The notes: a model not told the origin generated them from the letters alone. Numbered from the stretch's first letter, positions 23,138 through 54,052 are shown. The stretch is 64,000 nt of DNA from a virus (IMGVR_UViG_2778261571_000004); one strand, 5' to 3'. A program made the numbers and translations.

Positions 23138-23153
23138 AAAACAACTTGTTTAC
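23138..23153. promoter_or_regulatory. Operator-like palindrome, motif family 2 (AAACAAnTTGTTT), upstream of terS
   Basis: aaaacaacttgtttac; same palindrome recurs upstream of at least eight accessory genes. Confidence 0.4.
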
Positions 23154-23207
23154 TGCATCTGCTAACCAACTTGTTTTCTGGGGTGTTTAATTAGGTCTGG
23201 CATGTCT

Positions 23208-23272
23208 TACGAAGCCTGCTTCCGTATATATTTAATAAGTTACTTATTATTTATATATACAGAAGCAGGTCT
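23208..23272. repeat. Long inverted-repeat element, copy 1
   Basis: agcctgcttccgtatata ... tatatacagaagcaggtct arms around an AT-rich loop; near-identical arms recur at 56455-56515. Confidence 0.6.
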
Positions 23273-23293
23273 TTAAATAAGCTCCCAGACCGA

Positions 23294-23560
23294 TTACATC
23301 ACCAGTAACTTCGCTTTGGCTCGACCTAAAGTAGTTAACCCAAGAGTTCGGCGGTGATAGCGATTGTCACTGCGTTGGCGCGTATGCCCTTTCTCCACCA
23401 GCCCCTTTTTTATCAGAGCGCGAATTGAGAACTGGATACTTTGCTTGGTTGTCTTGTACGGCAAAACTTCAAGCAATTCGTCCAGGTCAAGTAGATGACC
23501 TCGCTCATAACCGAGATTGAGCGTTTTGATGATGTCCTTTTGTTTATCGGTTAACGTCAT
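23294..23560 (-). CDS. Small winged-helix-like DNA-binding protein (last gene of six-gene operon)
   Basis: 88 aa, basic, helix-turn-helix-like segment (TTKQSIQFSIRALIKKGLVEK). Confidence 0.35.
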   Translation of the reverse strand: MTLTDKQKDIIKTLNLGYERGHLLDLDELLEVLPYKTTKQSIQFSIRALIKKGLVEKGHTRQRSDNRYHRRTLGLTTLGRAKAKLLVM

Positions 23561-23569
23561 GGCAAATCC

Positions 23570-24469
23570 TTATGCCGGTAAAGCAATTTCTAACGGTTTA
23601 TCCAAAGGTTGTTTGTCGAATGCCAGCAGTGGCAGCGTGTCAGGCAGTCGACGACCAAAGTCAGGGTTTCGATACACACCATACAACGGAGACGTAAAGC
23701 TCAGGTTGTGAATGTCCTTGAGCAGCTTCACAATGCTGGCCTCGTCCACCAGACTGTCGGCAATGTCCTGAATCGTCGTGCCACGATTCCGCCCAGCTTT
23801 TGCCAGGGAACTGTTCTTGTGGTAGTCCGCCACCAGATCACGCAGTGCACGGCGACGACGAGACTCGCTCATAGCGAACAACTCTTTGACGATCGCCTCG
23901 TTATCACCCGGGTCGGAGCGGAAATGGCGCTGGAACACACGCAGTGCACTTTCATAGCTCTTCGGTCGCTCAGGGCGGATGAACTTAAACCCTGCTTTCA
24001 TGGCGAAGGGATTGTATTTGCTCATCGATGACTGGATCTCAATGATTGGCCGGTCGTGCATCCTGCTAACCAGGTTAATCATTCGATAAGAGACGCCTAC
24101 GCCACGGTACTGAGTATCCACAACTGAGCGGCTGATCACCGCAAAGTTGTTATTCACGTACCGGCCCCAGTACTGGTTAGCCACGGTGGTATTGGTAGTT
24201 GGTTTCAACTTAGGAAACATGCGATGGCGAGGTGCCAGCAGAAGTTTCGGGTAAGCCATAACCACGACGCCCACCAGACGGTCATCCAGTTCGCAGCGAT
24301 AGTATGTTGGCGCGAAAGGTTTGCCGTCTGTTTTGTAGTGAAGCGATTTAAGAGCGTGCCAGTCCTCTACAGTTCCCTTTGTGACAGTCATTCGCTCCAG
24401 AAAGTCCAGATGACGCGGAAACTCTTCAGGGCGGTAGCGTTTGATGATGATATCTGCCATCTCGATCAC
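23570..24469 (-). CDS. Putative acetyltransferase (GNAT-like) domain protein with helical C-terminal extension
   Basis: 299 aa; motif QYRGVGVSYRM resembles GNAT acetyl-CoA binding motif A; assignment by pattern only. Confidence 0.3.
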   Translation of the reverse strand: MIEMADIIIKRYRPEEFPRHLDFLERMTVTKGTVEDWHALKSLHYKTDGKPFAPTYYRCELDDRLVGVVVMAYPKLLLAPRHRMFPKLKPTTNTTVANQYWGRYVNNNFAVISRSVVDTQYRGVGVSYRMINLVSRMHDRPIIEIQSSMSKYNPFAMKAGFKFIRPERPKSYESALRVFQRHFRSDPGDNEAIVKELFAMSESRRRRALRDLVADYHKNSSLAKAGRNRGTTIQDIADSLVDEASIVKLLKDIHNLSFTSPLYGVYRNPDFGRRLPDTLPLLAFDKQPLDKPLEIALPA

Positions 24470-24720
24470 CTGCGCTCGATATTGGCATTGATGAAATCCA
24501 GGCGAAGAGACTCCATCGCCCCTACCATGACATACGGGCGCCCGCCGTTATGCCAGCAATCAAGAACACTGCCGTCGTTGTTGATCATCAACAGCGCCAG
24601 GCTCTGGCTTTTTCCTTCTCTGGCGTGCTGAAGTGCTTCTTCCAGCAGGCGGATGACTTCCACGTTGTTGTTATCAGTCTCTTTCGATGGCTTCAGCTCT
24701 ACGATCTTCAAATCAGGCAT
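24466..24720 (-). CDS. Hypothetical protein
   Basis: 84 aa, 4-nt overlaps with both neighbours (operon member). Confidence 0.3.
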   Translation of the reverse strand: MPDLKIVELKPSKETDNNNVEVIRLLEEALQHAREGKSQSLALLMINNDGSVLDCWHNGGRPYVMVGAMESLRLDFINANIERR

Positions 24721-25351
24721 ATTCCACCTTCACGCGTTCTTTGTAGTGCTTGGTGATCTGCATATCCGGGCGCAGCGCGTTCTTCAGGTCTTCGTGAGTC
24801 GTCGCCACCATTACCGTCGCACCAACCTTTCGAGCGGCACGCTGGAGGTTAGATGCCACAACCTGAGCGGTTACACGGTCGAGAACAGCGCCGAACTCGT
24901 CAGCAGCCCACACTTTAGCGCCTGACTCAATCAGTTTGGCAATCTTGAGACGATATTTCTGACCGTCTGACATTTCAGAAGGCTTGCGAACAAACAGATA
25001 TGCATCGTTCAGACCAGCCATAGATAACAACCCAAGCGCATCACTGGTAGTTTTGCCCAGTTGGTCAATGACGTTAACCTCATTATCGAAGGTAAAATCA
25101 TCGATGGAGGCCACAGATAGCCCTTCATCCTTCATCTGGTGTTGCAGCTCGCGCAGCACAACGGATTTGCCGGAACCGGATTGGCCGGTAATGTACACCA
25201 CATCGCCCTGCTTCACTTCCAGCTCCAGATTGTCGTAAAGCGTCCACTCTTTTTCGTCCAGGCCAAGCCCGAACGACTCAGCGATTTCCAACGTGCGCGT
25301 GGTTTTATTTACGCGTGTCTGAAACGATACGTTGATGATGTATTTGCTCAT
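24713..25351 (-). CDS. Orphan ABC-type ATPase (nucleotide-binding domain only)
   Basis: Walker A GQSGSGKS, signature-like MSDGQKYR, Walker B VWAADEFGA, H-loop ATTHED; no transmembrane partner nearby. Confidence 0.6.
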   Translation of the reverse strand: MSKYIINVSFQTRVNKTTRTLEIAESFGLGLDEKEWTLYDNLELEVKQGDVVYITGQSGSGKSVVLRELQHQMKDEGLSVASIDDFTFDNEVNVIDQLGKTTSDALGLLSMAGLNDAYLFVRKPSEMSDGQKYRLKIAKLIESGAKVWAADEFGAVLDRVTAQVVASNLQRAARKVGATVMVATTHEDLKNALRPDMQITKHYKERVKVEYA

Positions 25352-26016
25352 GCAGCCATCTCCCCGGAAGAGATCTTCTCCGCATATGCCACAAATGCGT
25401 CTACCCCGCTTTCTCCCGTCATTTCTTCCATGTGGGCAAGCAAATCACCAACAACAATGGCAGAGCCAGCAGGGAGCGTTTTAAAGCCCAATACGTCGAC
25501 AACACGTACTTCTTCCGCTGCAACTTCACGACTGATCTCGGTGTGTTCATCCTTCTGTCGTTTAGTTTCTTCGCCAAGATCGATAACTAGCGAGTCGGTG
25601 TCCATTTCTTCTGTCATACTGCCAACGAGAACATTCAACTCACGCTCTTCAAAGCCGAAAACCTCGATATCGTCCAGAACAAGCGACTCAAGCTCTTTCT
25701 GTAGCTTAATTGCATCGTAATCAATGCTGGCAAGTCGGTTATCTTCAAGGCGCTTCGCACGAACCTCGTCATCACTGAGATCATCGCGAACAATAACCGG
25801 TACGCGCTCAAGTCCAGCAAAAATTGCAGCCTCACGGCGGCCGTGGCCAGTAATAATTACGTCGTTCTTATCGACCGTAATTGGCTGGTCAAATCCGCGC
25901 TTTTTAATGGCTGCGGCTAGATCTCGGATCTGCTGTTCATCATGCTTTTTGGCATTCATCTCATAGGGAATAAGATCTGCCGGGTCGCGATATACGATTT
26001 CAAACTTTTTGGTCAT
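25348..26016 (-). CDS. ParB/Srx-like nuclease-domain protein 2
   Basis: ParB N-terminal motif ITGHGRREAAIFAGLERVPV; start set at MTKKFEIVY giving TAATG overlap with upstream stop; ORF track 25348-26049. Confidence 0.6.
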   Translation of the reverse strand: MTKKFEIVYRDPADLIPYEMNAKKHDEQQIRDLAAAIKKRGFDQPITVDKNDVIITGHGRREAAIFAGLERVPVIVRDDLSDDEVRAKRLEDNRLASIDYDAIKLQKELESLVLDDIEVFGFEERELNVLVGSMTEEMDTDSLVIDLGEETKRQKDEHTEISREVAAEEVRVVDVLGFKTLPAGSAIVVGDLLAHMEEMTGESGVDAFVAYAEKISSGEMAA

Positions 26017-26714
26017 TACATACGCTCCTTGTAGTAGTCGACCAGCCACACCAGAGCCTCACCAGCGTTCTCCATTTCATTACCGGTGTTAATAGCCTGC
26101 TCTTTGATGATGTTTTTTATGGTTTCTGCAACACGATCTGACGCATCGAAAGTTACTTTGAAGCGCATGGTCTGATGTTCCGCACCCACACGTTCGGTTT
26201 TCTCTCGTTTGTCGGTATCGACAGGCTCATCACTACCACGAGACAACGCCTCCAGTGCTTCAAGGTCGATTGCCGCCTCTTTTGCTAAAACCATCGAGAT
26301 TTCGTCGTCATACGGGGCGATTTCAGACAGTTGATAGTCAAGTTCTGACTGAATTTCTTCAATGAAGCGTTGCAATGCGATTTGGTCGTCTTCACCGTAT
26401 CGCTCGTTGTCCACCAGTGACATCTGTTTAGCTACGACATCGCTAATTTTGCCCACAGAAAGCACCGGAACCGTTGAAATTCCTTGCTCAATAGCAGCAC
26501 GCCAGCGATGTTCGCCGCCGAGGATTTCAAAAAATCCATCTTCAAGTTCACGAGCCAAAATTGGCTTAAAAAAGCCCAATTTTTCGATAGAACCTTTCAG
26601 TTTTTCAAAATTCTGCGCACCAACCGAATTGGTGTTCCAGGTATTCGGGCGAAGGTTGGCAACATCAACCTGCAAAATCGTGATTTTTACATCCATTTTA
26701 TTGCTACAATCCAC
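26016..26714 (-). CDS. ParB/Srx-like nuclease-domain protein 1
   Basis: ParB N-terminal motif ILGGEHRWRAAIEQGISTVPV; acidic C-terminal half. Confidence 0.6.
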   Translation of the reverse strand: MDCSNKMDVKITILQVDVANLRPNTWNTNSVGAQNFEKLKGSIEKLGFFKPILARELEDGFFEILGGEHRWRAAIEQGISTVPVLSVGKISDVVAKQMSLVDNERYGEDDQIALQRFIEEIQSELDYQLSEIAPYDDEISMVLAKEAAIDLEALEALSRGSDEPVDTDKREKTERVGAEHQTMRFKVTFDASDRVAETIKNIIKEQAINTGNEMENAGEALVWLVDYYKERM

Positions 26715-26778
26715 TAAGTAATCACTTACTTATTATAATAGCCAAATAACATACAAAAGGCACTAAGGAAAGAGGTTT

Positions 26779-28338: not shown

Positions 28339-28340
28339 TT

Positions 28341-28619
28341 ATGAGCGAAAAGAAAACAACTTATTGCCAAGTGGCATTGTCTGATAAGGCCAATGAAAAA
28401 CTTGGAAAATTTCAAATAAAACTCAAAGAGAAAAAAATCAAGATGTCTAAGGCTGAAGTTATCAATGCCATTCTGGAGACGATGACTATGGCTGAATTTG
28501 ACAAAGTCACATCTGCCGTTGGGGTTTCCGCTAAGACGCGTGAGAAAATCATGCGCATCTATGAAAACTCCAATATGACAAAAAAAGATTTAGAGGAAAT
28601 ACTGAGCAGGTTGCCGTAA
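28341..28619 (+). CDS. Hypothetical small basic protein, translationally coupled to helicase
   Basis: 92 aa, starts 3 nt after helicase stop. Confidence 0.35.
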   Translation: MSEKKTTYCQVALSDKANEKLGKFQIKLKEKKIKMSKAEVINAILETMTMAEFDKVTSAVGVSAKTREKIMRIYENSNMTKKDLEEILSRLP

Positions 28620-28684
28620 CATTTCATATTTACCCCCTATCTACTAATTCTATGATGTGCTCACTTGTTAGAAAGGAGCACATC

Positions 28685-29251: not shown

Positions 29252-29395
29252 TAGTCTACATGCAGGTGTATGAGAGCACCTGCATGTGACATTCGTCACA
29301 TTTTTTGAAGTGCACACCTCCGGCTGAAAAAATTTCTTGATTGGCTGAACGATATTTGTAGGCTTCATCGCTGAGTTTGGTCGAAGGGATAGCTA

Positions 29396-29971: not shown

Positions 29972-29978
29972 ACTCTCA

Positions 29979-30353: not shown

Positions 30354-30465
30354 CTCATCACTTGGAAGCATACCCTCGACAATATCAGAAAGATTTGTCG
30401 AGGGTTCGGGCTTTCCCTATGTTTGAACGATTAAATGTTAACAGCAATTAAATATTTTGTATATG

Positions 30466-31368: not shown

Positions 31369-31890
31369 ATGGTTAAAGACATCACCTACGGCATACCGGC
31401 TGAAGTCTGGCCGCGAGACTACGAACATGCTGAAAACATACTTATGTTCTGGCGGAAGAACAACATTCCTGTAAGAGTCACGCTTGAAGACGGTCAGGTG
31501 TTTTGCATGTACGTTCAGGGGACAATGCCTTCCCGCAATAAGCTAGATTTATGCCCGCTTCCATATGATAAAGAAAATCGTATAAGACTCCCACTTGAGC
31601 GCATTAGCACAATTGAATCAGGTGTAATCGATGGCATTGCTCGCGAGTTCAAAGGTAGGCTAACAATACATCCAGACTATGTTGACAATCAGCCATCACG
31701 CCGTGACTTTTTTGCGATATGTCGCAAGGCTTATCAAAACGACCAATCTATAAGGGTCTACATGACAGACGGTCGTGAAATAGAAGGGGTGTCAAGAGGC
31801 GTTGATGCTTGCCAGGTCACTCTTAAGTTAGAAGACGGCAGAAAAATACTTGTTTTCTTCGATTGGGTTGAACGAATCCTTCCATTTTAA
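31369..31890 (+). CDS. Hypothetical protein with two beta-rich repeats (weak resemblance to Rof/Sm-like fold)
   Basis: Internal repeat VRVTLEDGQVFCMYVQG / QVTLKLEDGRKILVFFDW; pattern only. Confidence 0.25.
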   Translation: MVKDITYGIPAEVWPRDYEHAENILMFWRKNNIPVRVTLEDGQVFCMYVQGTMPSRNKLDLCPLPYDKENRIRLPLERISTIESGVIDGIAREFKGRLTIHPDYVDNQPSRRDFFAICRKAYQNDQSIRVYMTDGREIEGVSRGVDACQVTLKLEDGRKILVFFDWVERILPF

Positions 31891-31902
31891 ATCTATAAGG
31901 GT

Positions 31903-32836: not shown

Positions 32837-32849
32837 TTAATGGAATCTT

Positions 32850-33730: not shown

Positions 33731-34213
33731 TTACACGCCATCAAGGATGTGGATGCGGTTGCTTGCGTATACATTCAGCATAAAGTTAGCGCAAAACAGT
33801 TTCCATGTATCAACGCCAGCGGTATACGTAATGTTTTTGCATTTAATCGCATTGTTGGCGATCCGCATCCCCTGCGATACTGCTTCATCGTCGGAAAATT
33901 TGAACGACGATTGAGTTTTAATCCAGACAGAAATCTGCGTAGCGAACTCAATCAGCTTGGACTGGCAGAATCGCCCGGAGCGCACCGGAAAGACGAACGT
34001 TCCGAATCCAGAATTTACCACATACGCTTTCTCAAATACCCGCGAGTAACGACGATTGCAAATGATGTCGCGTGCAATAATGCATTTTTCTTGTGCTGAC
34101 AGTTCTACCGTCTCATTGTCGCGCCATGCACCAAGTACTCGTTTTTCAATGTCAGAGAACGTTACAGCGATATTGCCATGTGCGGGTGCGTTTACAGTAG
34201 CGATAAAATTCAT
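33731..34213 (-). CDS. Hypothetical protein (operator-tagged moron)
   Basis: 160 aa; motif family 2 about 25 nt upstream of start. Confidence 0.35.
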   Translation of the reverse strand: MNFIATVNAPAHGNIAVTFSDIEKRVLGAWRDNETVELSAQEKCIIARDIICNRRYSRVFEKAYVVNSGFGTFVFPVRSGRFCQSKLIEFATQISVWIKTQSSFKFSDDEAVSQGMRIANNAIKCKNITYTAGVDTWKLFCANFMLNVYASNRIHILDGV

Positions 34214-34235
34214 GATTAATTCCTTATCGTAAATA

Positions 34236-34250
34236 ACAAATTGTTTTCTT
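34236..34250. promoter_or_regulatory. Operator-like palindrome, motif family 2
   Basis: aacaaattgttttct upstream of gene starting at 34213. Confidence 0.4.
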
Positions 34251-34418
34251 GTTGGTGTTAATTATCGTTGTACGAATAAGGCGTCAAAGTAGAAAGTTAC
34301 GGTAGCCGGACGGGAACAGGTGGGTTTGTCGGTTGCCTGGAGGTAAGAGGTTGGTGTTTTTAGCCTGCGGTAAACAGGATGGTCATTTAAGGCCACCAGC
34401 GTAAACTGGTGGCGTTTG

Positions 34419-35400: not shown

Positions 35401-35776
35401 TTACCACCAGGCGCAAAACGTCAGTCTGTTATTGTGAAAGTCGTGGTTCTTAATCAGGTCTTCCACAAGCTCTTTCAACTCCCCCACATCATGCCAGTAA
35501 CCTTCATCGTACTCCTGACTGCCGAAGAAAAAACCTTCCCGGGTAGGCAAGTACTCTTCGCAATTACTTTCGTTTATGTGCATCAAATGAGCCTTCAGAA
35601 AACAAATGTCATTCATCGTTAATTCTAAAAGCTCACAATTTTCGACTTCACCTACGTTGCGCTCCATCCACCCAACGAGCGCATTGAACTTACGGAAGTA
35701 AGCAACCCGCTTTCTGGATGCCTCATTATTCAGATCGTTTTTTGGCTGCGTCTCGATGTAGATATCAAGTCCCATG
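35401..35776 (-). CDS. Hypothetical protein
   Basis: Start set at MGLDIYIE with AAGGA RBS; ORF track 35401-35817 begins at an alternative start. Confidence 0.3.
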
Positions 35777-35892
35777 ATGGTTTCCTTATTAAGTTGCTTC
35801 AGTGAAATCATTTTCACAAATCAGATAAGGCAGAAAACAAATTGTTATCGGGCATAATAAAATGGCGCGGTTTGCGCGCCATTTAAAGAGGA

Positions 35893-36286: not shown

Positions 36287-36414
36287 ATTTCACTCTCCGT
36301 AGTGTATTGGTTATTTTTATATTCTATGATCGTAAGTATGTACTTACAATACAAAAAAGCCCCGTAAGGATGGCGGGGCTGTCGTACGGTCGACTAATTA
36401 CCACTTGCACATTA

Positions 36415-36726
36415 TCAGGCTATTGCCATCACTGATGCTCTCTGAATCTCTTGCTGGGCCACGCGGTTAACTTCCATCAAAGCCAGTTCGAGCTGATGTT
36501 CCGGCCACATTCTTTGAAATGCCACCCAGCCTTTTCCACGCTGGCGACGAACATTCATTACATAACGAGTAAAGGTGTTTTTATCGAAAGACACCGCTGT
36601 TTCACGGAACAGACGAATAGAGGTTCCATTGGCAACGATGTCCAGCAAAGTTAATTGAGCAACCAGCGCAGGCTTCTCTTTTCTCTTCTGGTCTTTGTCC
36701 AGACCAAGAACCAATGATTTTTTCAT
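36415..36726 (-). CDS. Hypothetical small basic protein
   Basis: Start set at MKKSLVLG with GGAG RBS directly downstream of motif family 2; ORF track 36415-36774. Confidence 0.3.
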   Translation of the reverse strand: MKKSLVLGLDKDQKRKEKPALVAQLTLLDIVANGTSIRLFRETAVSFDKNTFTRYVMNVRRQRGKGWVAFQRMWPEHQLELALMEVNRVAQQEIQRASVMAIA

Positions 36727-36736: not shown

Positions 36737-36754
36737 TAAACAACTTGTTTTCTC
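36737..36754. promoter_or_regulatory. Operator-like palindrome, motif family 2
   Basis: taaacaacttgttttctc immediately upstream of RBS. Confidence 0.4.
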
Positions 36755-36879
36755 AATGGCGTAAATAATACCAATAAGAAAACGGCTACAAAGCATAATG
36801 ATCAGGTGCATGAGCGATATGCAGGTTCCTCCCTGCGGCTATAGAGAAATTAAGCCAGCAATGCTGGCTTTGGTTGGGA

Positions 36880-37230
36880 TTACGCGAATACCTCAAGAAA
36901 CTCCTGAACGTCCCAATGCTGGACGAGGTGAAGATAGACCTTAGAAATCACGTCATTTTCGCTATCGCATGTGAAGTAGTACTTCTGGCTGCGGTTGTAT
37001 GTGTCCACACAAAATTCGCTCATATCCATAAAGTCAGCATCTTCACCCATGTCGCAAATCATCAAAGCAGGTGCGTCATCACGAGTCATCAGCTCAAGCA
37101 CCCACCGCGAATTAATCAGAGTGGAAGACCAACCTTCTAACTCATAAAACTGATCAAACTCTTTTTGAGTTAATTTCTTAATTTGGTTGATGTCGATATT
37201 TGCAAACATAAAGCAATCCTTAAACAACAT
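36880..37230 (-). CDS. Hypothetical acidic protein
   Basis: 116 aa, D/E-rich; start codon lies inside a motif family 2 palindrome (gaaaacATGttgttt). Confidence 0.3.
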   Translation of the reverse strand: MLFKDCFMFANIDINQIKKLTQKEFDQFYELEGWSSTLINSRWVLELMTRDDAPALMICDMGEDADFMDMSEFCVDTYNRSQKYYFTCDSENDVISKVYLHLVQHWDVQEFLEVFA

Positions 37231-37571
37231 GTTTTCTTGATGGTGTTATTATCGCAATAACGCAAAGGCGAAAAAGGATTTTATTCCGGTGAATGTGGTT
37301 TTGGCAGTGAGTTTTCAGGTTCAGTACCGAGTACACTTTTTACATTATTCTGATTTAGTGGCCGAAGGTGGCTGGTGGGCAGAATAATCATCTCCCCGAA
37401 AACCTACTGAAATCGATTGTGACCCGTTGGCTGTCTGGCACAATTACGCTGTAACTGGGCATTCAGAGGGAGTCCAACGGTAAGTTAGTCCGCCTACGTG
37501 AGCGCCTCTCTTCTTCCCGCACATTACAGGTGGATAGCCGCAACTCTCCCTCTCGCTATACCGGTACGCCG

Positions 37572-37859: not shown

Positions 37860-38700
37860 CCTCTCTATAGGCGTTAATGCTCACTCCTTCCAGAACGTTC
37901 TATACGGCGACTAATTCTGTTGGTGAATTGGGTGTGTTGTTCTCTCTGTCGGTGTAAATGGTTTCGTTCGTTTTGCGGTGGTTCTTCTATGGGGTGTTCT
38001 CGTCGTTTTGGTGATTGTTCTTCTCCGTCTATGGAGTAATGGCAGGTGGGCGATTGCTTTCGTTATTGTGTTTGAGTTGTTTGTCTGGAGTGTGTGAAAG
38101 GCTTTTGTAGTTATTCGTGTATTGGGTAATGGCGTTTCCCGTGATTGTTATGTTTCGTGTCTTTTGGGGTTGAGAGAAACCTTGCGGTAACAGGCTTCGT
38201 TGGGGTTTCAGTGATTCTGGTGTTTCTTCGCTGTTTGGGGAATGGCGTGTCGTGGGTATCGCGCGTATGAATGTTTTCGGATTGCCTGTGAAAGTTAGGT
38301 TGGTTGTCCGGTAGCCTGGGAAGAAGAGGTGGGTCTTTTCGGTAGCCTGCCATAAAGAGGTTGGTTGTTTTGGGGAATGGCATATGTGTTATTTAGTTGT
38401 TTTGTTATGCCTGAAAATAAGTTGTTTATATGGTTGTGTAACGCAATGGGAGTGATTTTGAGCGTGTGTTTTTGTTGGTAGTGTGTTGGTCGTCTGTGGT
38501 GAAAATTGGACGCTGTGGCGCTGTCTGCTGCGTAGAATTACGGGTATAAGCAGTGATGTGTGAAAACGTCAATTTTTTAGACCAAATCGGGTGAAAGCGT
38601 TGATGTTTCGTTGATCTGTTATTCAGTTGTTTCCTTGATTGTATAAACAACTATAACTTATTGATATTTAAGGGTGTGATTGCAGGTATGGAAGGAGAGT
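37860..38700. other. Non-coding region with extreme GT strand skew and degenerate 100-130-bp repeats
   Basis: About 78 percent G+T on plus strand in sampled 60-mers; recurring words gtaatggc, gggaatggc, cggtagcctg; ORFs here are low-complexity. Confidence 0.5.
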
Positions 38701-39189: not shown

Positions 39190-39481
39190 ACAATTTCCAA
39201 TTTTCCAGACCATCGTCTATTTCAGCGTCAGGGTGGAATTGTACCGCATCAAATCCTACATCGAGCACCTTTCGAATGTTCTTGATGGTTTGCTATGTGA
39301 CACCGTAATCACGCAGCTTTTCTTCCCTCCCCTGACTCCCCCATACTCCGTTTCTGTACCCAATTGAGTCCGAGATCGTATGGTGCTCGAAACAGATATT
39401 TGGTAGACACTCAGAGTCATGCTGTGTAACGAGGGTAGGGCTACTAACTGTCGTCTTATACAATTTGGTGAGTTTCAGCAT
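39190..39481 (-). pseudogene. Possible frameshifted small gene
   Basis: 62-aa ORF 39293-39481 ends at a stop while a second frame continues plausibly (...IKNIRKVLDVGFDAVQFHPDAEIDDGLENWKL) to about 39190. Confidence 0.2.
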
Positions 39482-39723
39482 TTTACCACCCCGTTCGGAA
39501 ACAACTCATTCGCCGTAGTTGATATAACCTCCCAATTAACGCCGACATCAGCGTTATGGCATTGTCTGATTTTTTGCATCACCTGTACGCATTGTTCATC
39601 AGTGAGATCTGTCCTTACTTCAGCAATATCTTCTTTGTGCCACATAACCATGAGTAAGGGTTCGTCTTCTGGATAGTTTTTCAGTTTCTCGATGATTTCT
39701 TTTGCTGTTCCAAACATCTTCAT
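39475..39723 (-). CDS. Hypothetical small acidic protein
   Basis: 82 aa; AGGAG RBS and motif family 2 palindrome directly upstream. Confidence 0.35.
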   Translation of the reverse strand: MKMFGTAKEIIEKLKNYPEDEPLLMVMWHKEDIAEVRTDLTDEQCVQVMQKIRQCHNADVGVNWEVISTTANELFPNGVVKC

Positions 39724-39728
39724 CTCCT

Positions 39729-39746
39729 AAACAATTTGTTTTCTTA
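39729..39746. promoter_or_regulatory. Operator-like palindrome, motif family 2 (second copy at about 39774-39796)
   Basis: taaacaatttgttttctt and gaaaacaaattgtttta, within 100 nt of the metG terminator. Confidence 0.4.
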
Positions 39747-39830
39747 TATGGCTTATTATCTCAATCAACAAAAGGTAGAAAACAAATTGTTTTAGGGCTT
39801 GTGTAAATCAGGAGGGATTGTGTCTATATG

Positions 39831-43205: not shown

Positions 43206-43595
43206 CTACATCACGGGACAATCATCAAACTCGCCACTTCTTGCGTCGTTGATAATGTGAGTGATCACACCAAACACGGCATTGCTGCCCGTGCATCCAT
43301 CGTCATCCTTTGGCAATGCTTCCTTCTTACCGGTTCTTAAATCCTCCAGATGCTGACGTGGGTACTTCCGGTATCTTTTTACGCGATATTCCCCATCCAG
43401 AGCGCATACAAGCAGAGAACCATCAACCGGGGTAAGTGAGGAATCGACCACCAGCAATGCACCCTGTAATATTCCCTCACGATGATGACTATCAGCTGCC
43501 CTCATGAAGTAGGTCGCTGAAGGATGTCTAATTATCTGCTGATCAAGAGAAATACGGCTCTCAGCATAATCCGCCGCAGGAGAAGGGAAGCCCAT
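43206..43595 (-). CDS. humD: UmuD'-like S24 peptidase-fold protein (HumD-like, no UmuC partner in window)
   Basis: 129 aa beginning GFPSPAADY, the position where UmuD is cleaved to UmuD'; Ser (ADSH) and Lys (RVKR) equivalents retained; GAGG RBS. Confidence 0.75.
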   Translation of the reverse strand: MGFPSPAADYAESRISLDQQIIRHPSATYFMRAADSHHREGILQGALLVVDSSLTPVDGSLLVCALDGEYRVKRYRKYPRQHLEDLRTGKKEALPKDDDGCTGSNAVFGVITHIINDARSGEFDDCPVM

Positions 43596-43613: not shown

Positions 43614-43633
43614 TACTGTTTATCCATACAGTA
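43614..43633. promoter_or_regulatory. LexA (SOS) box in promoter of umuD-like gene
   Basis: tactgtttatccatacagta matches CTGT-N8-ACAG consensus, about 20-40 nt upstream of start. Confidence 0.7.
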
Positions 43634-45083: not shown

Positions 45084-46642
45084 ATGAAAATGACAAGTAT
45101 TCAACAACGTGCAGAGCTTCATCGTCAAATCTGGCAAATTGCTAACGATGTCAGGGGTTCGGTCGATGGATGGGATTTTAAGCAATACGTTCTGGGCGCA
45201 CTTTTCTACCGTTTTATCAGCGAAAATTTTTCCAGTTATATTGAAGCCGGTGATGACAGTATCTGTTATGCGAAACTGGATGACAGCGTAATTACTGATG
45301 ACATTAAAGACGATGCCATCAAAACTAAAGGCTACTTCATCTACCCCAGTCAGCTTTTCTGCAACGTAGCTGCGAAAGCAAATACTAATGACAGACTGAA
45401 TGCAGATTTAAACAGCATCTTCGTTGCTATCGAAAGTTCTGCTTACGGTTATCCTTCAGAAGCAGACATCAAAGGTTTGTTTGCTGATTTCGATACCACC
45501 AGTAACCGCCTGGGTAACACCGTTAAAGATAAAAATGCCCGCCTGGCTGCGGTTCTGAAAGGGGTTGAAGGGTTAAAACTTGGTGACTTCAACGAACATC
45601 AGATTGACCTGTTCGGTGATGCCTATGAGTTCCTGATTTCTAACTATGCGGCAAATGCCGGTAAGTCAGGCGGTGAGTTCTTTACACCGCAGCACGTCTC
45701 CAGGCTGATTGCACAACTGGCAATGCATGGCCAGACCCACGTTAACAAAATCTACGACCCGGCAGCGGGTTCCGGCTCACTGTTGTTGCAGGCGAAAAAA
45801 CAGTTTGATAACCACATCATCGAAGAAGGCTTTTTCGGTCAGGAAATCAACCATACGACCTATAACCTGGCGCGTATGAACATGTTTTTGCACAATATCA
45901 ACTACGACAAGTTTGATATCAAGCTGGGTAATACACTGACTGAGCCGCACTTCAGAGATGAAAAACCGTTTGACGCCATCGTATCTAACCCACCGTATTC
46001 GGTGAAATGGATTGGCAGCGATGACCCGACGCTGATTAACGATGAGCGTTTTGCCCCGGCTGGCGTTCTGGCCCCCAAATCCAAAGCTGACTTTGCGTTT
46101 GTATTACATGCACTGAACTATCTTTCTGCCAAAGGTCGTGCTGCGATTGTCTGCTTCCCGGGTATTTTTTACCGTGGCGGCGCGGAGCAGAAAATCCGTC
46201 AGTATCTGGTCGATAATAACTATGTCGAAACCGTGATTTCACTGGCACCGAACCTGTTCTTTGGCACCACCATTGCAGTAAACATTCTGGTGCTGTCTAA
46301 ACATAAAACGGATACCAACGTTCAGTTTATTGACGCCAGCGAACTGTTCAAAAAAGAGACTAACAACAATATCCTGACCGATGCCCATATCGAACAGATT
46401 ATGCAGGTATTTGCCAGCAAGGAAGATGTTGCTCATCTGGCGAAATCTGTCACGTTTGAGACCGTTGTCGCGAATGACTATAACCTGTCGGTAAGCAGCT
46501 ATGTGGAAGCGAAAGATACTCGCGAAATTATCGATATCGCTGAGTTGAATGCAGAACTGAAAACCACGGTCAGCAAAATCGACCAGTTGCGTAAAGATAT
46601 TGATGCGATTGTGGCTGAAATTGAAGGCTGCGAGGTGCAGAA

Positions 46643-46646
<4 letters not shown>
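45084..46646 (+). CDS. hsdM: Type I restriction-modification methyltransferase subunit (type IC, EcoR124-like)
   Basis: 520 aa; SAM-binding and NPPY (NPPYSVKW) N6-adenine methylase motifs; N-terminus matches remembered EcoR124I HsdM. Confidence 0.9.
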
Positions 46647-47890
<1,244 letters not shown>

Positions 47891-48011
47891 TTGACCATTG
47901 CTACCGACCGGGCCACCTTAACACCCGGTCTGTATATAGACTATTTTTTACGCGCCGGAAGTCACTCTTAACGCCCTTCCGGCCCTTGCCAGGCGGCACA
48001 AAGGATGCGCT

Positions 48012-51000
48012 ATGACTCATCAAACACACACCATTGCTGAATCCAATAACTTTATCGTCCTTGATAAGTACATCAAAGCTGAGCAAACAAGCGACAGCTA
48101 CCAGAGCGAATCGGACCTGGAACGTGAACTGATTCAGGACCTGCGGAATCAGGGTTATGAATTTATTTCCGTAAAATCACAGTCGGCAATGCTGTCCAAT
48201 GTTCGGGAACAGCTTCAGAGCCTCAATGGTGTGATGTTTAATGACAGCGAGTGGCGGCGCTTCACGGAGCAGTATCTGGACAATCCCAGCGATGGTATTC
48301 TGGATAAGACCCGTAAAATCCATATCGACTATATCTGCGACTTTATTTTTGACGACGGGCGTCTTGAGAACATCTATCTGATCGATAAAAAGAATCTCAT
48401 GCGCAACAAAGTGCAGATTATCCAGCAGTTTGAACAGGCAGGTTCTCATGCTAACCGTTATGACGTCACGATCCTGGTTAATGGCTTGCCTCTGGTGCAA
48501 ATCGAACTGAAAAAGCGCGGCGTGGCGATTCGTGAGGCTTTCAACCAGATACATCGTTACAGTAAAGAGAGTTTTAACAGCGAAAACTCCCTGTTTAAGT
48601 ATCTGCAACTGTTTGTCATTTCTAACGGCACCGATACCCGTTATTTTGCCAACACAACAAAGCGCGATAAAAACAGTTTTGATTTCACCATGAACTGGGC
48701 GAAATCAGACAACACGCTGATTAAAGACCTCAAAGACTTTACCGCTACCTTTTTCCAGAAACATACTCTGCTGAATGTTCTGGTGAACTACAGCGTGTTT
48801 GACAGTAGTCAGACGCTACTGGTGATGCGACCGTACCAGATTGCCGCCACCGAGCGCATTCTGTGGAAAATTAAGAGCTCCTTTACAGCGAAGAACTGGT
48901 CAAAACCGGAAAGCGGTGGGTATATCTGGCACACTACCGGTTCTGGTAAAACCCTTACCAGCTTTAAAGCCGCGCGTCTGGCAACAGAGCTGGACTTTAT
49001 TGATAAAGTCTTCTTTGTGGTCGACAGAAAAGACCTCGATTACCAGACCATGAAGGAATATCAGCGTTTTTCGCCAGACAGCGTCAACGGCTCGGAAAAT
49101 ACCGCAGGCCTTAAACGAAATCTGGATAAGGACGATAACAAAATTATCGTCACTACTATTCAGAAACTCAATAACCTGATGAAAGCAGAAAGCGACCTGC
49201 CTGTATATAATCAGCAAGTGGTGTTCATATTTGATGAATGCCACCGCAGCCAGTTTGGAGAAGCGCAGAAAAACCTGAAGAAGAAATTCAAACGCTATTA
49301 TCAGTTTGGTTTTACCGGCACCCCTATTTTCCCGGAAAACGCCTTAGGCTCAGAAACAACCGCCAGCGTATTTGGTCGTGAATTGCATTCGTATGTAATT
49401 ACCGATGCGATTCGTGACGAAAAAGTGCTCAAATTCAAGGTGGACTACAACGATGTGCGGCCACAGTTTAAGTCTTTAGAGACAGAAACTGACGAGAAAA
49501 AACTAAGTGCGGCTGAAAATCAGCAGGCGTTTCTTCATCCCATGCGTATTCAGGAAATCACGCAATATATTCTGAATAATTTCCGCCAGAAAACTCACCG
49601 TACCTTCCCTGGCTCAAAAGGTTTTAATGCTATGTTGGCAGTGAGCAGCGTGGATGCCGCGAAAGCCTATTATGCGACGTTTAAACGGTTACAAGAAGAA
49701 GCCGCTAATAAATCGGCTACCTATAAACCGCTGCGTATTGCGACAATCTTCTCCTTTGCCGCTAATGAAGAACAAAATGCCATTGGTGAAATTTCCGATG
49801 AAACTTTTGATACCAGCGCAATGGACAGCAGTGCTAAAGAGTTTCTGGACGCTGCAATTCGTGAATATAACAGCCATTTTAAAACTAACTTTAGCACCGA
49901 CAGTAACGGTTTTCAGAACTACTATCGTGATTTAGCCCAGCGGGTTAAAAATCAGGATATCGATCTGTTAATTGTCGTTGGGATGTTTTTAACCGGCTTC
50001 GACGCTCCAACATTGAACACGCTATTCGTCGATAAAAACTTGCGTTTTCACGGCCTGATGCAGGCATTTTCCCGCACCAACCGTATTTATGATGCAACTA
50101 AAACCTTCGGTAATATCGTCACTTTCCGGGATCTGGAACGCTCAACCATCGATGCCATAACGCTGTTTGGTGACAAAAACACCAAAAATGTAGTGTTAGA
50201 AAAGAGTTATGCAGAGTATATGGAAGGCTTTACTGATGCTGCTACAGGTGAAGCTAAACGCGGCTTTATGGCAGTAGTTTCAGAACTGGAACAACGGTTC
50301 CCTGACCCTGCCAGTATTGAAAGTGAAAAAGAGAAGAAAGACTTCGTTAAACTGTTTGGCGAATACCTGCGTGCCGAGAACATCCTGCAAAACTATGATG
50401 AATTTGCCACGCTGAAAGCCCTGCAACAAATCGATCTTAGCGATCCTGTTGCGGTAGAAAAATTCAAAGAAGAACATTATGTGGATGATGAAAAGTTCGC
50501 TGAATTGCAAACGATTCGTCTCCCTGCTGAACGCAAGATTCAGGATTATCGTTCTGCCTATAACGATATTCGTGACTGGCAGCGCCGCGAGAAAGAAGCT
50601 GATAAAAAAGAAAAATCAACCACTGACTGGGATGACGTGGTTTTTGAGGTCGATTTGCTGAAGTCTCAGGAAATAAACCTGGATTATATCCTTGGACTGA
50701 TTTTCGAACACAACAGACAAAATAAAGGCAAGGGCGAAATGATCGAAGAGGTCAAACGCTTAATTCGTTCAAGCCTGGGGAACCGGGCGAAAGAGGGCCT
50801 GGTGGTCGATTTTATTCAGCAAACGAACCTGGATGATTTACCAGACAAAGCCAGCATCATTGACGCGTTCTTTACCTTTGCTCAACACGAACAGCTACGT
50901 GAAGCAGAAGCGTTGATTAAAGAAGAAAATCTCAATGAAGAGGCGGCGAAACGCTATATTCGCACGTCTTTAAAACGCGAATACGCCACCGAAAATGGCA

Positions 51001-51128
51001 CAGAATTAAACGAGACATTACCAAAACTTAGTCCGTTAAACCCGCAATATAAAACGAAAAAACAGACGGTTTTCCAGAAAATCGTCACGTTTATTGAAAA
51101 GTTCAAAGGAGTAGGTGGGCAGATATAG
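48012..51128 (+). CDS. hsdR: Type I restriction endonuclease subunit
   Basis: 1038 aa; SF2 helicase motifs (TGSGKT, DECHRS) and N-terminal nuclease region; length equals EcoR124I HsdR. Confidence 0.9.
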
Positions 51129-51186
51129 TGTATTAATCTGAACCAGATCTGGCAGATATCTGTGCAAATTGCAGATAGCTGTCAGA

Positions 51187-51663
51187 TCAAGCCATCGTAG
51201 GGATGTCTGTATCCACTTTGAACTCCGGTACACCAACGAACTCTTTAACCTTCATCTGATAGCCGGTTCTGTCAGTTTTGATGACTTCCTGCTTGCCCTC
51301 GATAAATTGCTCACGCCACTCGTCGCGACGGGAAGCTGGCATGATCAGCAAAACGTTAGTCATATCCGTGACCTTCCTCCAGTACTCGGCCCAAATATTC
51401 TGTTTCACCCATTCCAGATCGACTTTATCCAGCCAAGCTCGATTCAAACGTGAGCGTTCTTCATCTGGTCGATGGTTCAGTTGCAGCAGGCGATTAATCA
51501 TGTTGTGGCGTTCGTCGCCATAAACGAAGTCGTGAACCTGATACATGAAGGCGATCTCTTTCTCGCACTCGGCTACGATTTCGTGGATGACGTTCATTTC
51601 CTGACGATAATCGATAGCAGTGTTTGAGTTGGTATCGTCGATGATGGAAAGAGCTGTATTCAT
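51187..51663 (-). CDS. Hypothetical protein convergent with hsdR
   Basis: 158 aa; 8-bp-arm inverted repeat (aattgcac...gtgcaatt) in its upstream region. Confidence 0.3.
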   Translation of the reverse strand: MNTALSIIDDTNSNTAIDYRQEMNVIHEIVAECEKEIAFMYQVHDFVYGDERHNMINRLLQLNHRPDEERSRLNRAWLDKVDLEWVKQNIWAEYWRKVTDMTNVLLIMPASRRDEWREQFIEGKQEVIKTDRTGYQMKVKEFVGVPEFKVDTDIPTMA

Positions 51664-51766
51664 AATTGCACCATTAAGAAAAGATTTGTTTAATAGTGCA
51701 ATTATTTCAAAAATGAAAAGGTGCTAAATAGAAATTAACAGGCAATCCTTTAAATAAAGGTATTTG

Positions 51767-52665
51767 CTAATCATACTTTGAGGTATTTATAACCAGGATT
51801 TTGTTTGTATAAATCTTCTTAATATCCCATGTGACATTACCGGAATACCATTGACCGTTATATACTTGGTTTCCAGTTGCACCGGTCATAGTTACATAGA
51901 CAGGTCTGTCGTAATCGGTTCGTCTATAGTTATAAACCCCAACCATAGCAGGCATTACTGCGCACGGATACCCCATATCTATTGTAAATTGTGGGTCAGT
52001 AATAGTGATAAGTTTTGCATCAAGGGGCATCATCTCACCGTGATACACCATTGCGCCTGCGCTGTTATACATGGCAATGCCATAGCCAGAATGTGGTAAC
52101 ACCATATCAGAAAAAGCATAAACTGTTATTGTTCCGGGGCTACCATTTACCTGATGCAATCTGAGAGCATTGTATCCGTTACTATGTTCATGAATAAACA
52201 TCATGTTCGCCTTATTGCTGCTTTTTATGAAGAAAAAGCATGATTTGTTTGATGGGATTGATGTTTGAAAAACAGAACCTTTAGATGTAGACATTGTCCC
52301 TTTATTAATCAGATTTTGCGGAGTAAATTCAGGACTCATCCACAAACTTCCATCTGATTGAGTAATTGACATCCCGAACATAATTATCCCCAGTATGTGT
52401 ATATGTAAGAACCAAGCCCCGTATATAAATTTGACCAACTAACCGTATTTCCATTAATAGTAACATTTGGAACAGGTAAATTGATGTAGTTGTCGTTGTT
52501 AAGAGGCATTAATGACCACACGGCATGTAGTGATTTACCCGGTGGCGGATTAGAGTACGTCTTAGAGCCTGATGACGCCGTAAATCGATCAAGAAAAAAA
52601 ATAGGTGTAAGGAAGCCAGTAACGTTAATTCCTTTATTGTTGTAAATCCCTGTACCGTATGCCAT
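51767..52665 (-). pseudogene. Possibly frameshifted gene for an N/Y/G/T-rich protein
   Basis: ORFs 52384-52665 and 51767-52438 overlap in different frames, similar composition, very AT-rich. Confidence 0.3.
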
Positions 52666-52719
52666 TTTTCACCCTTGTTTTTATCAACACAATATGGCCG
52701 ATCATGCGGCCATATCAGA

Positions 52720-53289
52720 TCAATTAGAGCTTTGAAAGACTTTGTGTGGTTGTGTTGCGAGGTTATGTCGATGGCTTAACTCACGCATCATGTCTTCAAG
52801 GCGACTCTTTGTGTCGTCGAGTTGGTCGGCCATTGCTCCCAAAAGCTGACGAACGGCCATCGGATCATCGCTGTTTAGTGATGGCATTTTATAACCCGCC
52901 TGAGAAGACATAAGATTGAACGCAGACATCAACATCGTTAGAGAGGATTTAAGCCCAGCAATTTCACGATCTTTGCTGGCAATAATCGTCTCACTCTTGT
53001 TAGTGTCATCAGTTCGTTGAGTCTCGCTCACCATATCCAAAGTCGCCTGCAACTTATCAGCGCGCTCTTTTTCAGCAAGATAATGAACACCGAAATGATG
53101 TGCTAAAGCTACAACCTGAGTTGGCTCTTCAAAGGTGGACTCAAAATTAAGTGCTGTAACCACTCTCTCAAATATGGAAACGTCTTCTATTCCTCGAAGA
53201 ATGGCTAACATTTTGACCAGTTCATTAGCATCCATTTCTTCGAATAAGGCGTTTTGTTCATCAGCTATCGCTTTGCATTTCTTACACAT
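52720..53289 (-). CDS. Hypothetical coiled-coil protein
   Basis: 189 aa; motif family 2 palindrome about 25 nt upstream. Confidence 0.3.
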   Translation of the reverse strand: MCKKCKAIADEQNALFEEMDANELVKMLAILRGIEDVSIFERVVTALNFESTFEEPTQVVALAHHFGVHYLAEKERADKLQATLDMVSETQRTDDTNKSETIIASKDREIAGLKSSLTMLMSAFNLMSSQAGYKMPSLNSDDPMAVRQLLGAMADQLDDTKSRLEDMMRELSHRHNLATQPHKVFQSSN

Positions 53290-53306
53290 GTGTTTTTCCT
53301 AATTCT

Positions 53307-53326
53307 TAAACAAGTTGTTTTCTTAT
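53307..53326. promoter_or_regulatory. Operator-like palindrome, motif family 2
   Basis: ttaaacaagttgttttctta. Confidence 0.4.
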
Positions 53327-53586
53327 TGGCTTTATTGTGATGTGGCATAAAAGGGGAGCAAGCTAAACGTAAAGGTGCAAACTCTCTATTTCGGTCAACG
53401 AAACACAAGGGCCATTTGGCCCTTGTCATTAACACGTTGCTTTACGGACTAGCGGATAAGCGAAGTAGATCGCCAGACCAATGAGGACGCCATCAGAAAT
53501 GACAGACATCATCTTTCCCGTAAAATCCACCAACACCGCCATCACCAGAAGAGCAATGACGGTCACAAGCCGGAATCTCTCAAGCA

Positions 53587-54012
53587 TTAGAGATAAGCAT
53601 CCAGTGACAACTGAAGCGCCTGGGCGATCTTTTTCAGTGCCTGCTCTTCTTGTTCACCAATGCCGTCCTGGTCGGCAATATCAAGGCACAGACACAGAAC
53701 ATCGACCGCCTCTGGAGTGCCCGCAATATCAGCCAGCTCACGCATAGCCTGCGCATTCGCAGAACGAGGGGACGCTTCGTAACGAGCACGGATATTGGCG
53801 CTCATTTGGGCAATTTCACCAGCAAACGGAGAAAACGCAGGCAGAGCTGCAATTGTCTTCTCAAGAATGGCAATTTCTTTTGCGTCACATGTGCCGTCGG
53901 CATAGGAGATCATGTACGCGCCCCACACGGTGGCCTCAACCGCATCACGGTTCTCCATTTTTTTGACTTCGATAACAGCTTTACGAGTTTTCTTTTTGAA
54001 GAAACCTAACAT
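53587..54012 (-). CDS. TerB-like domain protein
   Basis: 141 aa with paired ADG-containing helices (ISYADGTCDAKEIAILE, LDIADQDGIGEQEEQAL); motif family 2 upstream. Confidence 0.5.
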   Translation of the reverse strand: MLGFFKKKTRKAVIEVKKMENRDAVEATVWGAYMISYADGTCDAKEIAILEKTIAALPAFSPFAGEIAQMSANIRARYEASPRSANAQAMRELADIAGTPEAVDVLCLCLDIADQDGIGEQEEQALKKIAQALQLSLDAYL

Positions 54013-54033
54013 GTGTTTTCCTTTTGTTATTTG

Positions 54034-54052
54034 TCAAAACAAGTTGTTTTAT
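54034..54052. promoter_or_regulatory. Operator-like palindrome, motif family 2
   Basis: tcaaaacaagttgttttat. Confidence 0.4.

Follow-up and report, generated by a model that had tools for sequence, protein, structure and literature searches.

A 64,000-nt stretch of viral DNA, IMGVR_UViG_2778261571_000004 (as a whole, hereafter the window), was analyzed for a short palindrome that recurs in front of many of its genes. The region at 33–44 kb matches Escherichia phage Cyrano (OV696614, 108 kb) at 97% identity and is also 97% identical to plasmids of about 110 kb from many E. coli strains. The window derives from an SSU5-like phage-plasmid, of which it holds about 60%. It comprises structural genes on the minus strand (1–23 kb), an operon of ParB_N, ABC and winged-helix genes, a UvsW-like helicase gene, accessory genes in the neighborhood of metG-apbC, a type I restriction-modification system and nucleotide-metabolism genes. 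Cyrano is induced 39-fold by ciprofloxacin, and the transcriptome of a lysogen has been published (PMC9928086). Two palindrome families were distinguished in this DNA: a 13-base family, AAACAAnTTGTTT, labeled F2, which is the subject of this work, and a second one, TAAGTAnnTACTTA, labeled F1.

Recurrence and symmetry of the F2 palindrome

The window contains 11 matches to AAACAANTTGTTT with no more than one mismatch, whereas 100 dinucleotide-preserving shuffles gave an expectation of 0.48 and a largest count of 2. The first-pass annotation of this DNA had reported a recurring operator-like palindrome at nine positions. The enrichment test came out in favor of recurrence above chance, and each of the nine positions was right to within 2–6 nt; two further copies, at 23164 and 38415, had been overlooked. 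Sites with exactly two mismatches stayed at the level of chance (6 in the window versus about 4 expected). De novo palindrome counting over the complete Cyrano genome returned AAACAA-N-TTGTTT as the top palindrome, with 9 exact copies against 0.011 expected. When one mismatch was allowed, 18 copies were counted in Cyrano (108 kb) and 18 in the Klebsiella plasmid CP037443, where this is the top palindrome too.

A logo was built from 36 sites taken from two genomes. It was symmetric, with 1.3–2.0 bits at each of the 12 specified arm positions and 0.2 bits at the central base. Symmetric information around an uninformative center reads as the signature of a two-fold symmetric DNA binder. All 11 window copies are intergenic and lie 5′ of open reading frames (ORFs) of the minus strand, and six of them carry a TCT extension on the plus strand, which on the strand of the gene reads as AGA directly ahead of the palindrome.

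Some copies have extra flank sequence in common (TAATTAACACC...AGA; TTTTCTGCCTT...), which suggests cassette ancestry, and F2 might thus have no dedicated binder at all, its copies being relics of a duplicated promoter cassette or products of chance in AT-rich DNA. We regard this as highly improbable. The enrichment over shuffles exceeds 20-fold, the information is confined to the 12 symmetric positions, and equally AT-rich relatives (38% GC) show no F2 enrichment. Moreover, at the helicase, parA and nrdB promoters the palindrome is kept between Cyrano and the Klebsiella element amid flanks that have diverged until they can no longer be aligned.

Placement of F2 in predicted promoters

Promoters were inferred from −10-like hexamers, each F2 copy being read on the strand of its gene. 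Six window copies (23164, 34234, 36738, 37222, 39729 and 53308; class A) follow a −10-like hexamer (GATAAT, TATTAT, TAATTA and the like) after 13 ± 1 nt ending in AGA. A ribosome-binding site (RBS) and an ATG come 11–25 nt past the palindrome, whose center falls near +14. Three copies (35835, 38415 and 39780; class B) precede the −10 by exactly 19 nt, the −10 usually having a TGn extension; here the center falls at about −38 and overlaps the −35 region. As for the remaining copies, that at 54037 lies over the −10 TATAAA and that at 23139 is a second leader copy at about +39. The individual copies, with their coordinates in the window, are given below.

23164–23176, minus strand: F2 copy with one mismatch, AAACAAGTTGGTT on the gene strand; class A; 13 nt 3′ of the −10-like CCTAAT/TAATTA (23189–23195); first of two copies in the terS leader
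23139–23151, minus strand: perfect F2 copy, 25 bp 3′ of the 23164 copy, at about +39, directly ahead of the leader hairpin
34234–34246, minus strand: F2 copy with one mismatch; class A; −10 GATAAT at 34261–34266 with a 14-nt spacer; 20 nt 5′ of the ATG of the 160-aa ORF 33731–34213
35835–35847, minus strand: F2 copy with one mismatch; class B; 19 nt to the extended −10 TGtGAAAAT (35810–35815); preceded by the terminator of the upstream gene; fronts ORF 35401–35775
36738–36750, minus strand: perfect F2 copy; class A; −10 TATTAT at 36765–36770; 11 nt 5′ of the ATG at 36726 (103-aa ORF)
37222–37234, minus strand: F2 copy with one mismatch, AAACATGTTGTTT; class A; −10 GATAAT at 37248–37253
38415–38427, minus strand: F2 copy with one mismatch; class B; 19 nt to TAAATA (38390–38395); 5′ of ORF 38111–38383
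39729–39741, minus strand: perfect F2 copy; class A; −10 GATAAT at 39755–39760; fronts the 80-aa ORF 39475–39717
39780–39792, minus strand: perfect F2 copy; class B; also uses GATAAT at 39755–39760, shared with the 39729 copy
53308–53320, minus strand: perfect F2 copy; class A; −10-like CACAAT at 53334–53339; 18 nt 5′ of the ATG of ORF 52720–53289
54037–54049, minus strand: perfect F2 copy overlapping the −10 TATAAA (54047–54052), with a −35 TTGCGT 16 nt upstream; center at about −3; fronts the TerB/TciA-like ORF 53587–54012

The copies at 39729 and 39780 are 51 bp apart, center to center, so that one core promoter lies between two operator-like sites. According to the first-pass annotation the copies stand 5–40 nt upstream of a start codon. 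This is true of eight of the 11, those at 35835, 38415 and 39780 being further upstream, ahead of the −10; a shared position relative to genes was nonetheless recovered by systematic mapping, which gave fixed offsets to −10 hexamers and placed every copy 5′ of a gene. The ATG within the 37222 copy, which had been taken as a start codon, is the mismatch to the consensus and probably does not serve as one. The real start is probably the next ATG, at 37206, located 15 nt downstream after an AAGGA RBS; the ORF that begins there matches PHROG 7645 over its full length.

The geometry was assessed statistically on the same 36 sites as the logo. Of these, 25 had a −10-like hexamer with at least four of six matches at one of the two class offsets (A or B), versus 18% of random positions (p = 2e-11), and 13 had one with at least five of six matches, versus 1.7% of random positions (p = 1e-14). 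Further evidence came from the orthologous promoters of the 160-aa gene, which have the same GATAAT: the F2 site is at +14 in the window, in Cyrano and in the Yersinia pestis plasmid pMT1, and at −38 in the Klebsiella element. Two interchangeable positions at one promoter are what one would expect of a repressor rather than of an activator.

The genes behind F2 are of several kinds. In the window they are terS (two copies), six small ORFs of unassigned function, a 189-aa ORF and the TerB/TciA-like gene, and in the rest of Cyrano F2 fronts parA, the replicative helicase gene, cobT, nrdB and others. Searches of Pfam, PHROGs, NCBIfam and the Protein Data Bank (PDB) assigned the small F2-fronted proteins to no Pfam family and matched them to PHROGs of unassigned function only. 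Their description as often acidic held for six of nine downstream proteins (pI 4.2–5.1), the other three having a pI of 9–10.5. A set of moron or anti-defense genes on both sides of metG-apbC, as first suggested, proved too narrow a description, since terS, parA, the helicase gene, nrdB and cobT are fronted as well; F2 is a genome-wide regulon and not an accessory-gene tag. Nor was expression of the moron type observed for most of the genes directly behind F2. In RNA-seq of strain LF82, a Cyrano lysogen, the first genes behind F2 stood at 5.7–14 normalized counts versus a prophage median of 9.8, the exceptions being parA (50), the helicase gene (21) and CYRAN_111, the 160-aa gene (25.5) (PMC9928086, supplementary table). 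Because F2-fronted genes are mostly silent in the plasmid state, they are not morons in the expression sense.

We infer that the F2 copies are probably operators of one sequence-specific repressor, dimeric or a dimer of dimers, which would silence genes in the plasmid prophage. That one dimeric regulator is shared by all copies had been proposed from the start, and the symmetry of the sites, their over-representation, their fixed −10 offsets and their retention at orthologous promoters with diverged flanks all argue for it. Each copy would occupy a fixed place in a sigma-70-type promoter with a reasonable −10 and a poor −35. In the +14 placement, 13 ± 1 nt past the −10, a bound repressor might act as a roadblock in the manner of lacO1; in the −38 placement, 19 nt ahead of an often extended −10, it would overlap the −35 region; and in a third placement it would cover the −10. 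With 51 bp between them, a +14 site and a −38 site could be used singly or together on one promoter. Once bound, the repressor would exclude or trap RNA polymerase, and some 16–18 promoters per genome would in this way be held off as long as the element lives as a plasmid prophage, among them those of small accessory genes, parA, the helicase gene, nrdB, cobT and the late operon that begins with terS.

Some of these observations could be accommodated by the opposite sign of control, F2 being the site of a lytic-phase activator, or a phage promoter element that replaces the −35, with silence in the lysogen reflecting absence of the activator. The −35 boxes are indeed weak, the genes are silent in the lysogen, and class B sites, centered near −38 at a strictly fixed distance from the −10, come close to the geometry of class II activators; the winged-helix gene, in turn, belongs to an operon that is silent in lysogens grown in LB. 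An activator is nevertheless unlikely. Six of the 11 window copies and most Cyrano copies lie past the −10, near +14, and others at −3 and +39, positions that do not fit an activator and from which it could not work. The orthologous promoter of the 160-aa gene has either +14 or −38. Besides, extended −10 promoters such as those of class B need no activator and should be active unless repressed.

The vicinity of class A copies to start codons, the RBS beginning no more than 2 nt from the palindrome in three of six, also brought to mind a function as RNA, in which F2 would be a translational operator beside the Shine-Dalgarno sequence, read by an FljA-family protein or by host Hfq. The window encodes a full-length FljA-family protein at 31369–31890 on the plus strand (CYRAN_114; 'repressor of phase-1 flagellin', PF03614, E = 1e-80). 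In sequence it resembles two Sm/Hfq-like modules, the match to Pfam Hfq being below threshold. Homologs are present in pMT1 and in the Klebsiella relative and were not found in the Acinetobacter, Pectobacterium and Providencia relatives, so that among the genomes examined the family occurs only in those with F2. FljA is known to repress fliC post-transcriptionally (PMC2652032), and the gene in this element is expressed in growing lysogens (PMC9928086). The class B sites and the one that covers the −10 would, however, lie 5′ of the predicted transcription start and hence outside the mRNA; the equal conservation of both arms suits a dimer site on double-stranded DNA rather than an RNA site; and the RNA would form at best a 5-bp A-U-rich stem with a 3-nt loop. 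Furthermore, the FljA-like protein of the Klebsiella element is 26% identical although F2 is identical, and the E. coli fliC leader has no F2; the Salmonella fliC leader may contain CAAGTTG. Control at the RNA level is thus quite unlikely, and the FljA-family protein, which looks like a tandem Sm-like RNA binder, was rejected as the reader of F2. Independently of F2, it may let the phage-plasmid shut down translation of host flagellin.

Three F2-like sites with two mismatches, jointly at the level of chance, were noted at 28354, 51679 and 55617. The first is within the first codons of a 92-aa gene and is not kept in pMT1 or the Klebsiella element. That at 51679 is 16 nt 5′ of the ATG of ORF 51187–51663 and is preceded by a TGAAATAAT. 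The degenerate site at 55617 is 28 nt 5′ of rnhA, and between it and the rnhA start there is an alternating purine-pyrimidine run, ACGCACGCGTGTGCGCACGCGCG, which is Z-DNA-prone (about 55565–55595, minus strand).

Distribution of F2 and candidate readers

F2 was searched for in relatives of the element. The Klebsiella plasmid CP037443, whose helicase is 67% identical, has its 18 copies mostly in class B, and pMT1 has kept six copies. In 80 SSU5-like viral loci, at least one F2 copy was found between the winged-helix gene and terS wherever the sequence reaches this region, about 120 nt 3′ of the winged-helix gene. When viral contigs were scanned with GAAAACAANTTGTTT, only SSU5-like contigs had at least four copies among the matches listed. 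By contrast, F2 was absent from the genomes and loci examined of relatives in Acinetobacter, high-GC hosts, Pectobacterium and Providencia. Pectobacterium Drgb1 (L223–L225) and Providencia pPROV236-2 (L226–L228) showed no enriched palindrome family, neither F1 nor F2. They nonetheless encode homologs of the XRE repressor and of the winged helix, and their operators must be organized differently. The F2 regulon thus appears limited to the Escherichia/Klebsiella/Salmonella/Yersinia branch of SSU5-like phage-plasmids.

An F2 copy is present in the parA promoter of both Cyrano and the Klebsiella element, and F2, as a 13-bp palindrome around a central base, is in broad terms comparable to the RK2 KorA/KorB operators (PMC11790492). 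In addition, two proteins with a ParB_N domain are encoded at 25348–26714. F2 could accordingly be a set of dispersed, centromere-like partition sites, as are the SopB sites found in promoters of N15, or the targets of a KorB-like member of the ParB family. These possibilities are very unlikely on several counts. pMT1 keeps F2 but has P1-type ParAB rather than the small ParA and its partner, and the Cyrano and Klebsiella versions of this small partner share 35% identity, F2 being identical; the partner in Cyrano, CYRAN_29 (type Ib), was for its absence from pMT1 and its poor conservation discarded as the reader. The ParB_N proteins consist of the N-terminal domain only (Pfam, NCBIfam), no helix-turn-helix (HTH) being detectable in alignments, their expression in the lysogen (5.0 and 9.5) is background, and they also occur in F2-negative relatives, which disqualifies them as KorB analogs. 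Strict spacing to the −10 also favors a role in transcription over one in segregation.

The second palindrome family was informative as to which protein does not read F2. F1 (TAAGTAnnTACTTA, at most one mismatch) has eight copies in the window versus 0.25 expected, and about 25 in Cyrano.

775, 7699, 14197, 19688/19692, 26715, 36333 and 61983: 14-bp F1 sites overlapping core promoters in the structural and early regions

The site at 26715 is 3 nt past a TATAAT, and that at 36333 includes the −35 of a TTGTAA-17-TAGAAT promoter. F1 is unchanged in pMT1, becomes TATGTAnnTACATA in the Klebsiella element and AGTAAGnnCTTACT in Acinetobacter, and the recognition helix of the XRE repressor (CYRAN_45, encoded outside the window) reads NANN in Cyrano and pMT1, NVNT in Klebsiella and NQNM in Acinetobacter. 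Given this covariation in four genomes, and the F1-type sites just 5′ of the repressor gene, F1 probably represents the operators of the XRE-type prophage (master) repressor. Assignment of F1 to this protein implies a different reader for F2; in fact, the helix of CYRAN_45 differs between Cyrano and Klebsiella as F1 does, F2 being unchanged, and the sites next to the gene are of the F1 type, not F2. Dispersed operator regulons therefore already exist in this element family. The two palindrome families would split most promoters of the element into two regulons, the F2 regulon forming a second layer interleaved with the F1 promoters under the XRE repressor.

Candidates for the reader of F2 were ranked by fold, conservation, expression and phyletic pattern. 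The three encoded in the window are as follows.

23294–23560, minus strand: 88-aa minimal MarR-like winged helix; last gene before the terS promoter, directly 5′ of the double F2 site
33731–34213, minus strand: CYRAN_111, a 160-aa basic protein (pI 9.1); own promoter with F2 in every F2-positive genome examined
28341–28619, plus strand: 92-aa protein, directly after the UvsW-like helicase; putative strand-helix-helix sequence pattern of the CopG-like ribbon-helix-helix (RHH) type

The 88-aa protein, which had been singled out early as one candidate, is a possible, though tentative, choice. Its assignment as a winged helix was confirmed by an AlphaFold2 (AF2) model with a predicted local distance difference test (pLDDT) score of 82, for which the top Foldseek matches were 2pg4, MepR, ZitR and SSV1 F-93, i.e. 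MarR/MepR proteins and small archaeal winged helices. Cyrano and the Klebsiella element do not differ in its recognition helix, and the gene has some expression of its own in growing lysogens (PMC9928086). No consistent CAAnTTG-type motif was found near the winged-helix gene in eight distant loci; repeats 3′ of the gene vary from one of these lineages to another and are more reminiscent of a packaging or origin region.

CYRAN_111 is a doubtful candidate. Presence and absence of 55 small proteins were compared in three F2-positive and three F2-negative genomes, and only CYRAN_59, 61, 62, 111 and 114 remained. The N-terminus of CYRAN_61 resembles a signal peptide, and CYRAN_59 is, by its sequence, apparently acidic; homologs of CYRAN_111 were found only in F2-positive genomes, and the gene is mildly expressed in the lysogen. 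It seems similarly doubtful that the 92-aa protein is the reader. Its gene ranks with the most strongly expressed ones of the lysogen (114 versus a background of 9.8; PMC9928086), and its homologs adjoin the helicase in all relatives examined, with variable residues in the N-terminal strand. An RHH fold was not supported by the AF2 monomer (pLDDT 57), by hhalign against CopG (probability 2.6%) or by a PDB profile search, which returned only designed helical repeats.

A host protein would explain both why F2 does not vary and why it is confined to one host range, and we would give it about the same modest chance as either of the two preceding proteins; we know of no host transcription factor with an F2-like site. 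Quite possibly, the reader is something else altogether. Two other assignments failed: the Cyrano iterons that flank repA are 21-bp repeats of the CTCTCTATAGTGGATA type, unrelated to F2, which dismisses the RepA dimer, and F2 has no match to CTGT-N8-ACAG, the LexA (SOS) box.

Several points weigh against a single F2 repressor. With their weak −35 boxes, the F2 promoters were not called by a generic sigma-70 consensus scan. H-NS-type silencing of AT-rich DNA, or a missing activator, could likewise account for silence in the lysogen. parA should be on in the plasmid, yet it carries F2 and is only partly repressed. Lastly, among the candidates ranked, no conserved, lysogen-expressed and clearly DNA-binding protein fits F2 cleanly. 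The winged helix is unconvincing as the regulator in that its recognition helix is nearly unchanged in F2-negative relatives, those from Pectobacterium and Providencia differing by no more than a single conservative change (I to M) and the high-GC ones by two (Q to A, I to L); CYRAN_111 has no recognizable DNA-binding fold and 30% identity between two F2-positive genomes; and the putative DNA-facing residues of the 92-aa protein vary among genomes in which F2 is invariant.

A bolder version of the repressor reading is also conceivable, if somewhat improbable: F2 might be read by the 160-aa protein, without any detectable DNA-binding fold, or by a protein of the Escherichia/Klebsiella/Salmonella/Yersinia host, and the element would then have a second master switch, restricted to one lineage, that does not depend on the prophage repressor. 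If so, one family of sites would couple partition, replication, nucleotide supply, accessory or anti-defense genes and the late operon. Were the reader a scarce host protein, the approximately 18 sites per copy of the element could act as a titration timer, replication diluting the repressor and thereby firing the regulon, terS included.

The terS leader, neighboring features and known networks

The two F2 copies ahead of terS are followed by a further element.

23109–23138, minus strand: terminator-like leader hairpin AGAGCGC-atggac-GCGCTCT, then GTGTGTTTT

This hairpin is placed between the F2 pair and the RBS and ATG (23098) of terS. The same layout, consisting of promoter, short leader, GC hairpin with T-run and terS, was found without F2 in distant high-GC relatives (L094, L095, L097 and L100), which also have a ...TTCCTCCTA... 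leader motif in common. Recurrence of a terminator-like hairpin before terS suggests that the late operon is under antitermination control. The late operon probably also requires antitermination, with F2 as an added lock in the Escherichia/Klebsiella/Salmonella/Yersinia lineage.

In the interval from the winged-helix gene to the terS promoter there is also a 55-bp AT-rich palindrome with perfect arms (CCTGCTTCTGTATATAT...ATATATACGGAAGCAGG), centered on ATAAGTAACTTAT (23215–23269). Related repeat-flanked AT-rich regions occupy its place in the Acinetobacter and high-GC relatives, and its possible functions include those of a packaging site, a lytic origin or the late promoter region. The five-gene operon ahead of terS (23570–26714, minus strand) encodes, besides the winged helix, two proteins with ParB_N only, an ABC-type ATPase and a 299-aa protein, and its conservation extends from E. 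coli as far as the Acinetobacter relative. No other non-structural proteins are as well conserved as this ATPase and the 299-aa protein (81–85% versus the Klebsiella relative).

Elsewhere in the window, a complete type I restriction-modification system (hsdM, hsdS, hsdR) is encoded within the accessory region (45084–51128, plus strand). Its position is filled in Cyrano by Ea22/Eaa-like genes, which marks a variable cargo slot with F2-fronted genes on its flanks. A perfect LexA box, TACTGTTTATCCATACAGTA, is located at 43614–43633, just 5′ of a umuD-like S24 peptidase gene (43206–43595, minus strand), and Cyrano has LexA-like boxes 5′ of its umuD-like S24 peptidase gene and of its integrase gene. 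The SOS link of the element may run through these boxes.

Phage-plasmids of the SSU5 type, pMT1 and pHCM2 among them, occur commonly in E. coli, Klebsiella, Salmonella and Yersinia and carry resistance genes such as dfrA51. For these elements the present analysis offers a concrete regulatory map, in which F1 tracks the XRE repressor, with a specificity that varies between elements, and F2 is invariant across the E. coli/Klebsiella/Yersinia branch. The map bears on which genes fire together, on what silences the late operon and the small accessory, possibly anti-defense, genes, and on the role of a host factor. No description of the F2 motif or of SSU5-type regulation was found in the literature searched.

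Among known systems, the KorA (12-bp OA) and KorB (OB) operators of the IncP plasmid RK2/RP4 resemble F2 in being short palindromes at many promoters of one mobile element. Like the RK2 network, F2 would exert joint control over replication, partition and accessory (in RK2, or transfer) genes, from operators over or just 5′ of core promoters. The promoters of RK2 are weak or unstable in themselves, and the repressors out-compete them (PMC11790492; PMC2665229). Unlike in RK2, no KorA or KorB homolog is implicated for F2, the ParB_N proteins of this element having no detectable HTH. F2 sites are also at fixed, short distances from the −10, including +14, whereas KorB of RK2 also acts from 45 to more than 1000 bp upstream. 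Moreover, the element that carries F2 is a tailed phage-plasmid and RK2 is a conjugative plasmid.

In the phage-plasmid P1, the C1 operators are dispersed, lytic and accessory operons each having their own, and number about 15–20 per genome of about 100 kb; they are asymmetric 17-mers bound by a monomer. F2 is like them in dispersal and copy number and differs from them as a perfectly symmetric 13-mer. No C1 homolog is annotated in Cyrano, no search aimed at C1 having been made, and the C1-like role seems to be played here by F1 and the XRE repressor, which would make F2 an additional, second regulon. Placement just past the transcription start recalls lac O1, centered at +11, and the pair at 39729/39780, which brackets one promoter with identical sites, recalls the two-operator promoter of gal. 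Here, in contrast to lac and gal, there was no evidence of looping or tetramerization, and 51 bp would be very short for a loop.

As to the protein, CopG/Arc-type RHH repressors bind 13-bp pseudo-symmetric elements and winged helices of the SlyA/MarR type bind palindromes of 12–18 bp. Both folds are represented among the F2 candidates, the winged helix being supported and the RHH pattern only suggested, and neither is linked to F2. Taken together, F2 would work like the RK2 and P1 networks and is a member of neither, since the proteins or site features that define those networks, as far as they were tested, are different here. Regulons built on operators dispersed over a mobile element are a well-known kind of system, of which the F2 family is apparently a previously undescribed case.

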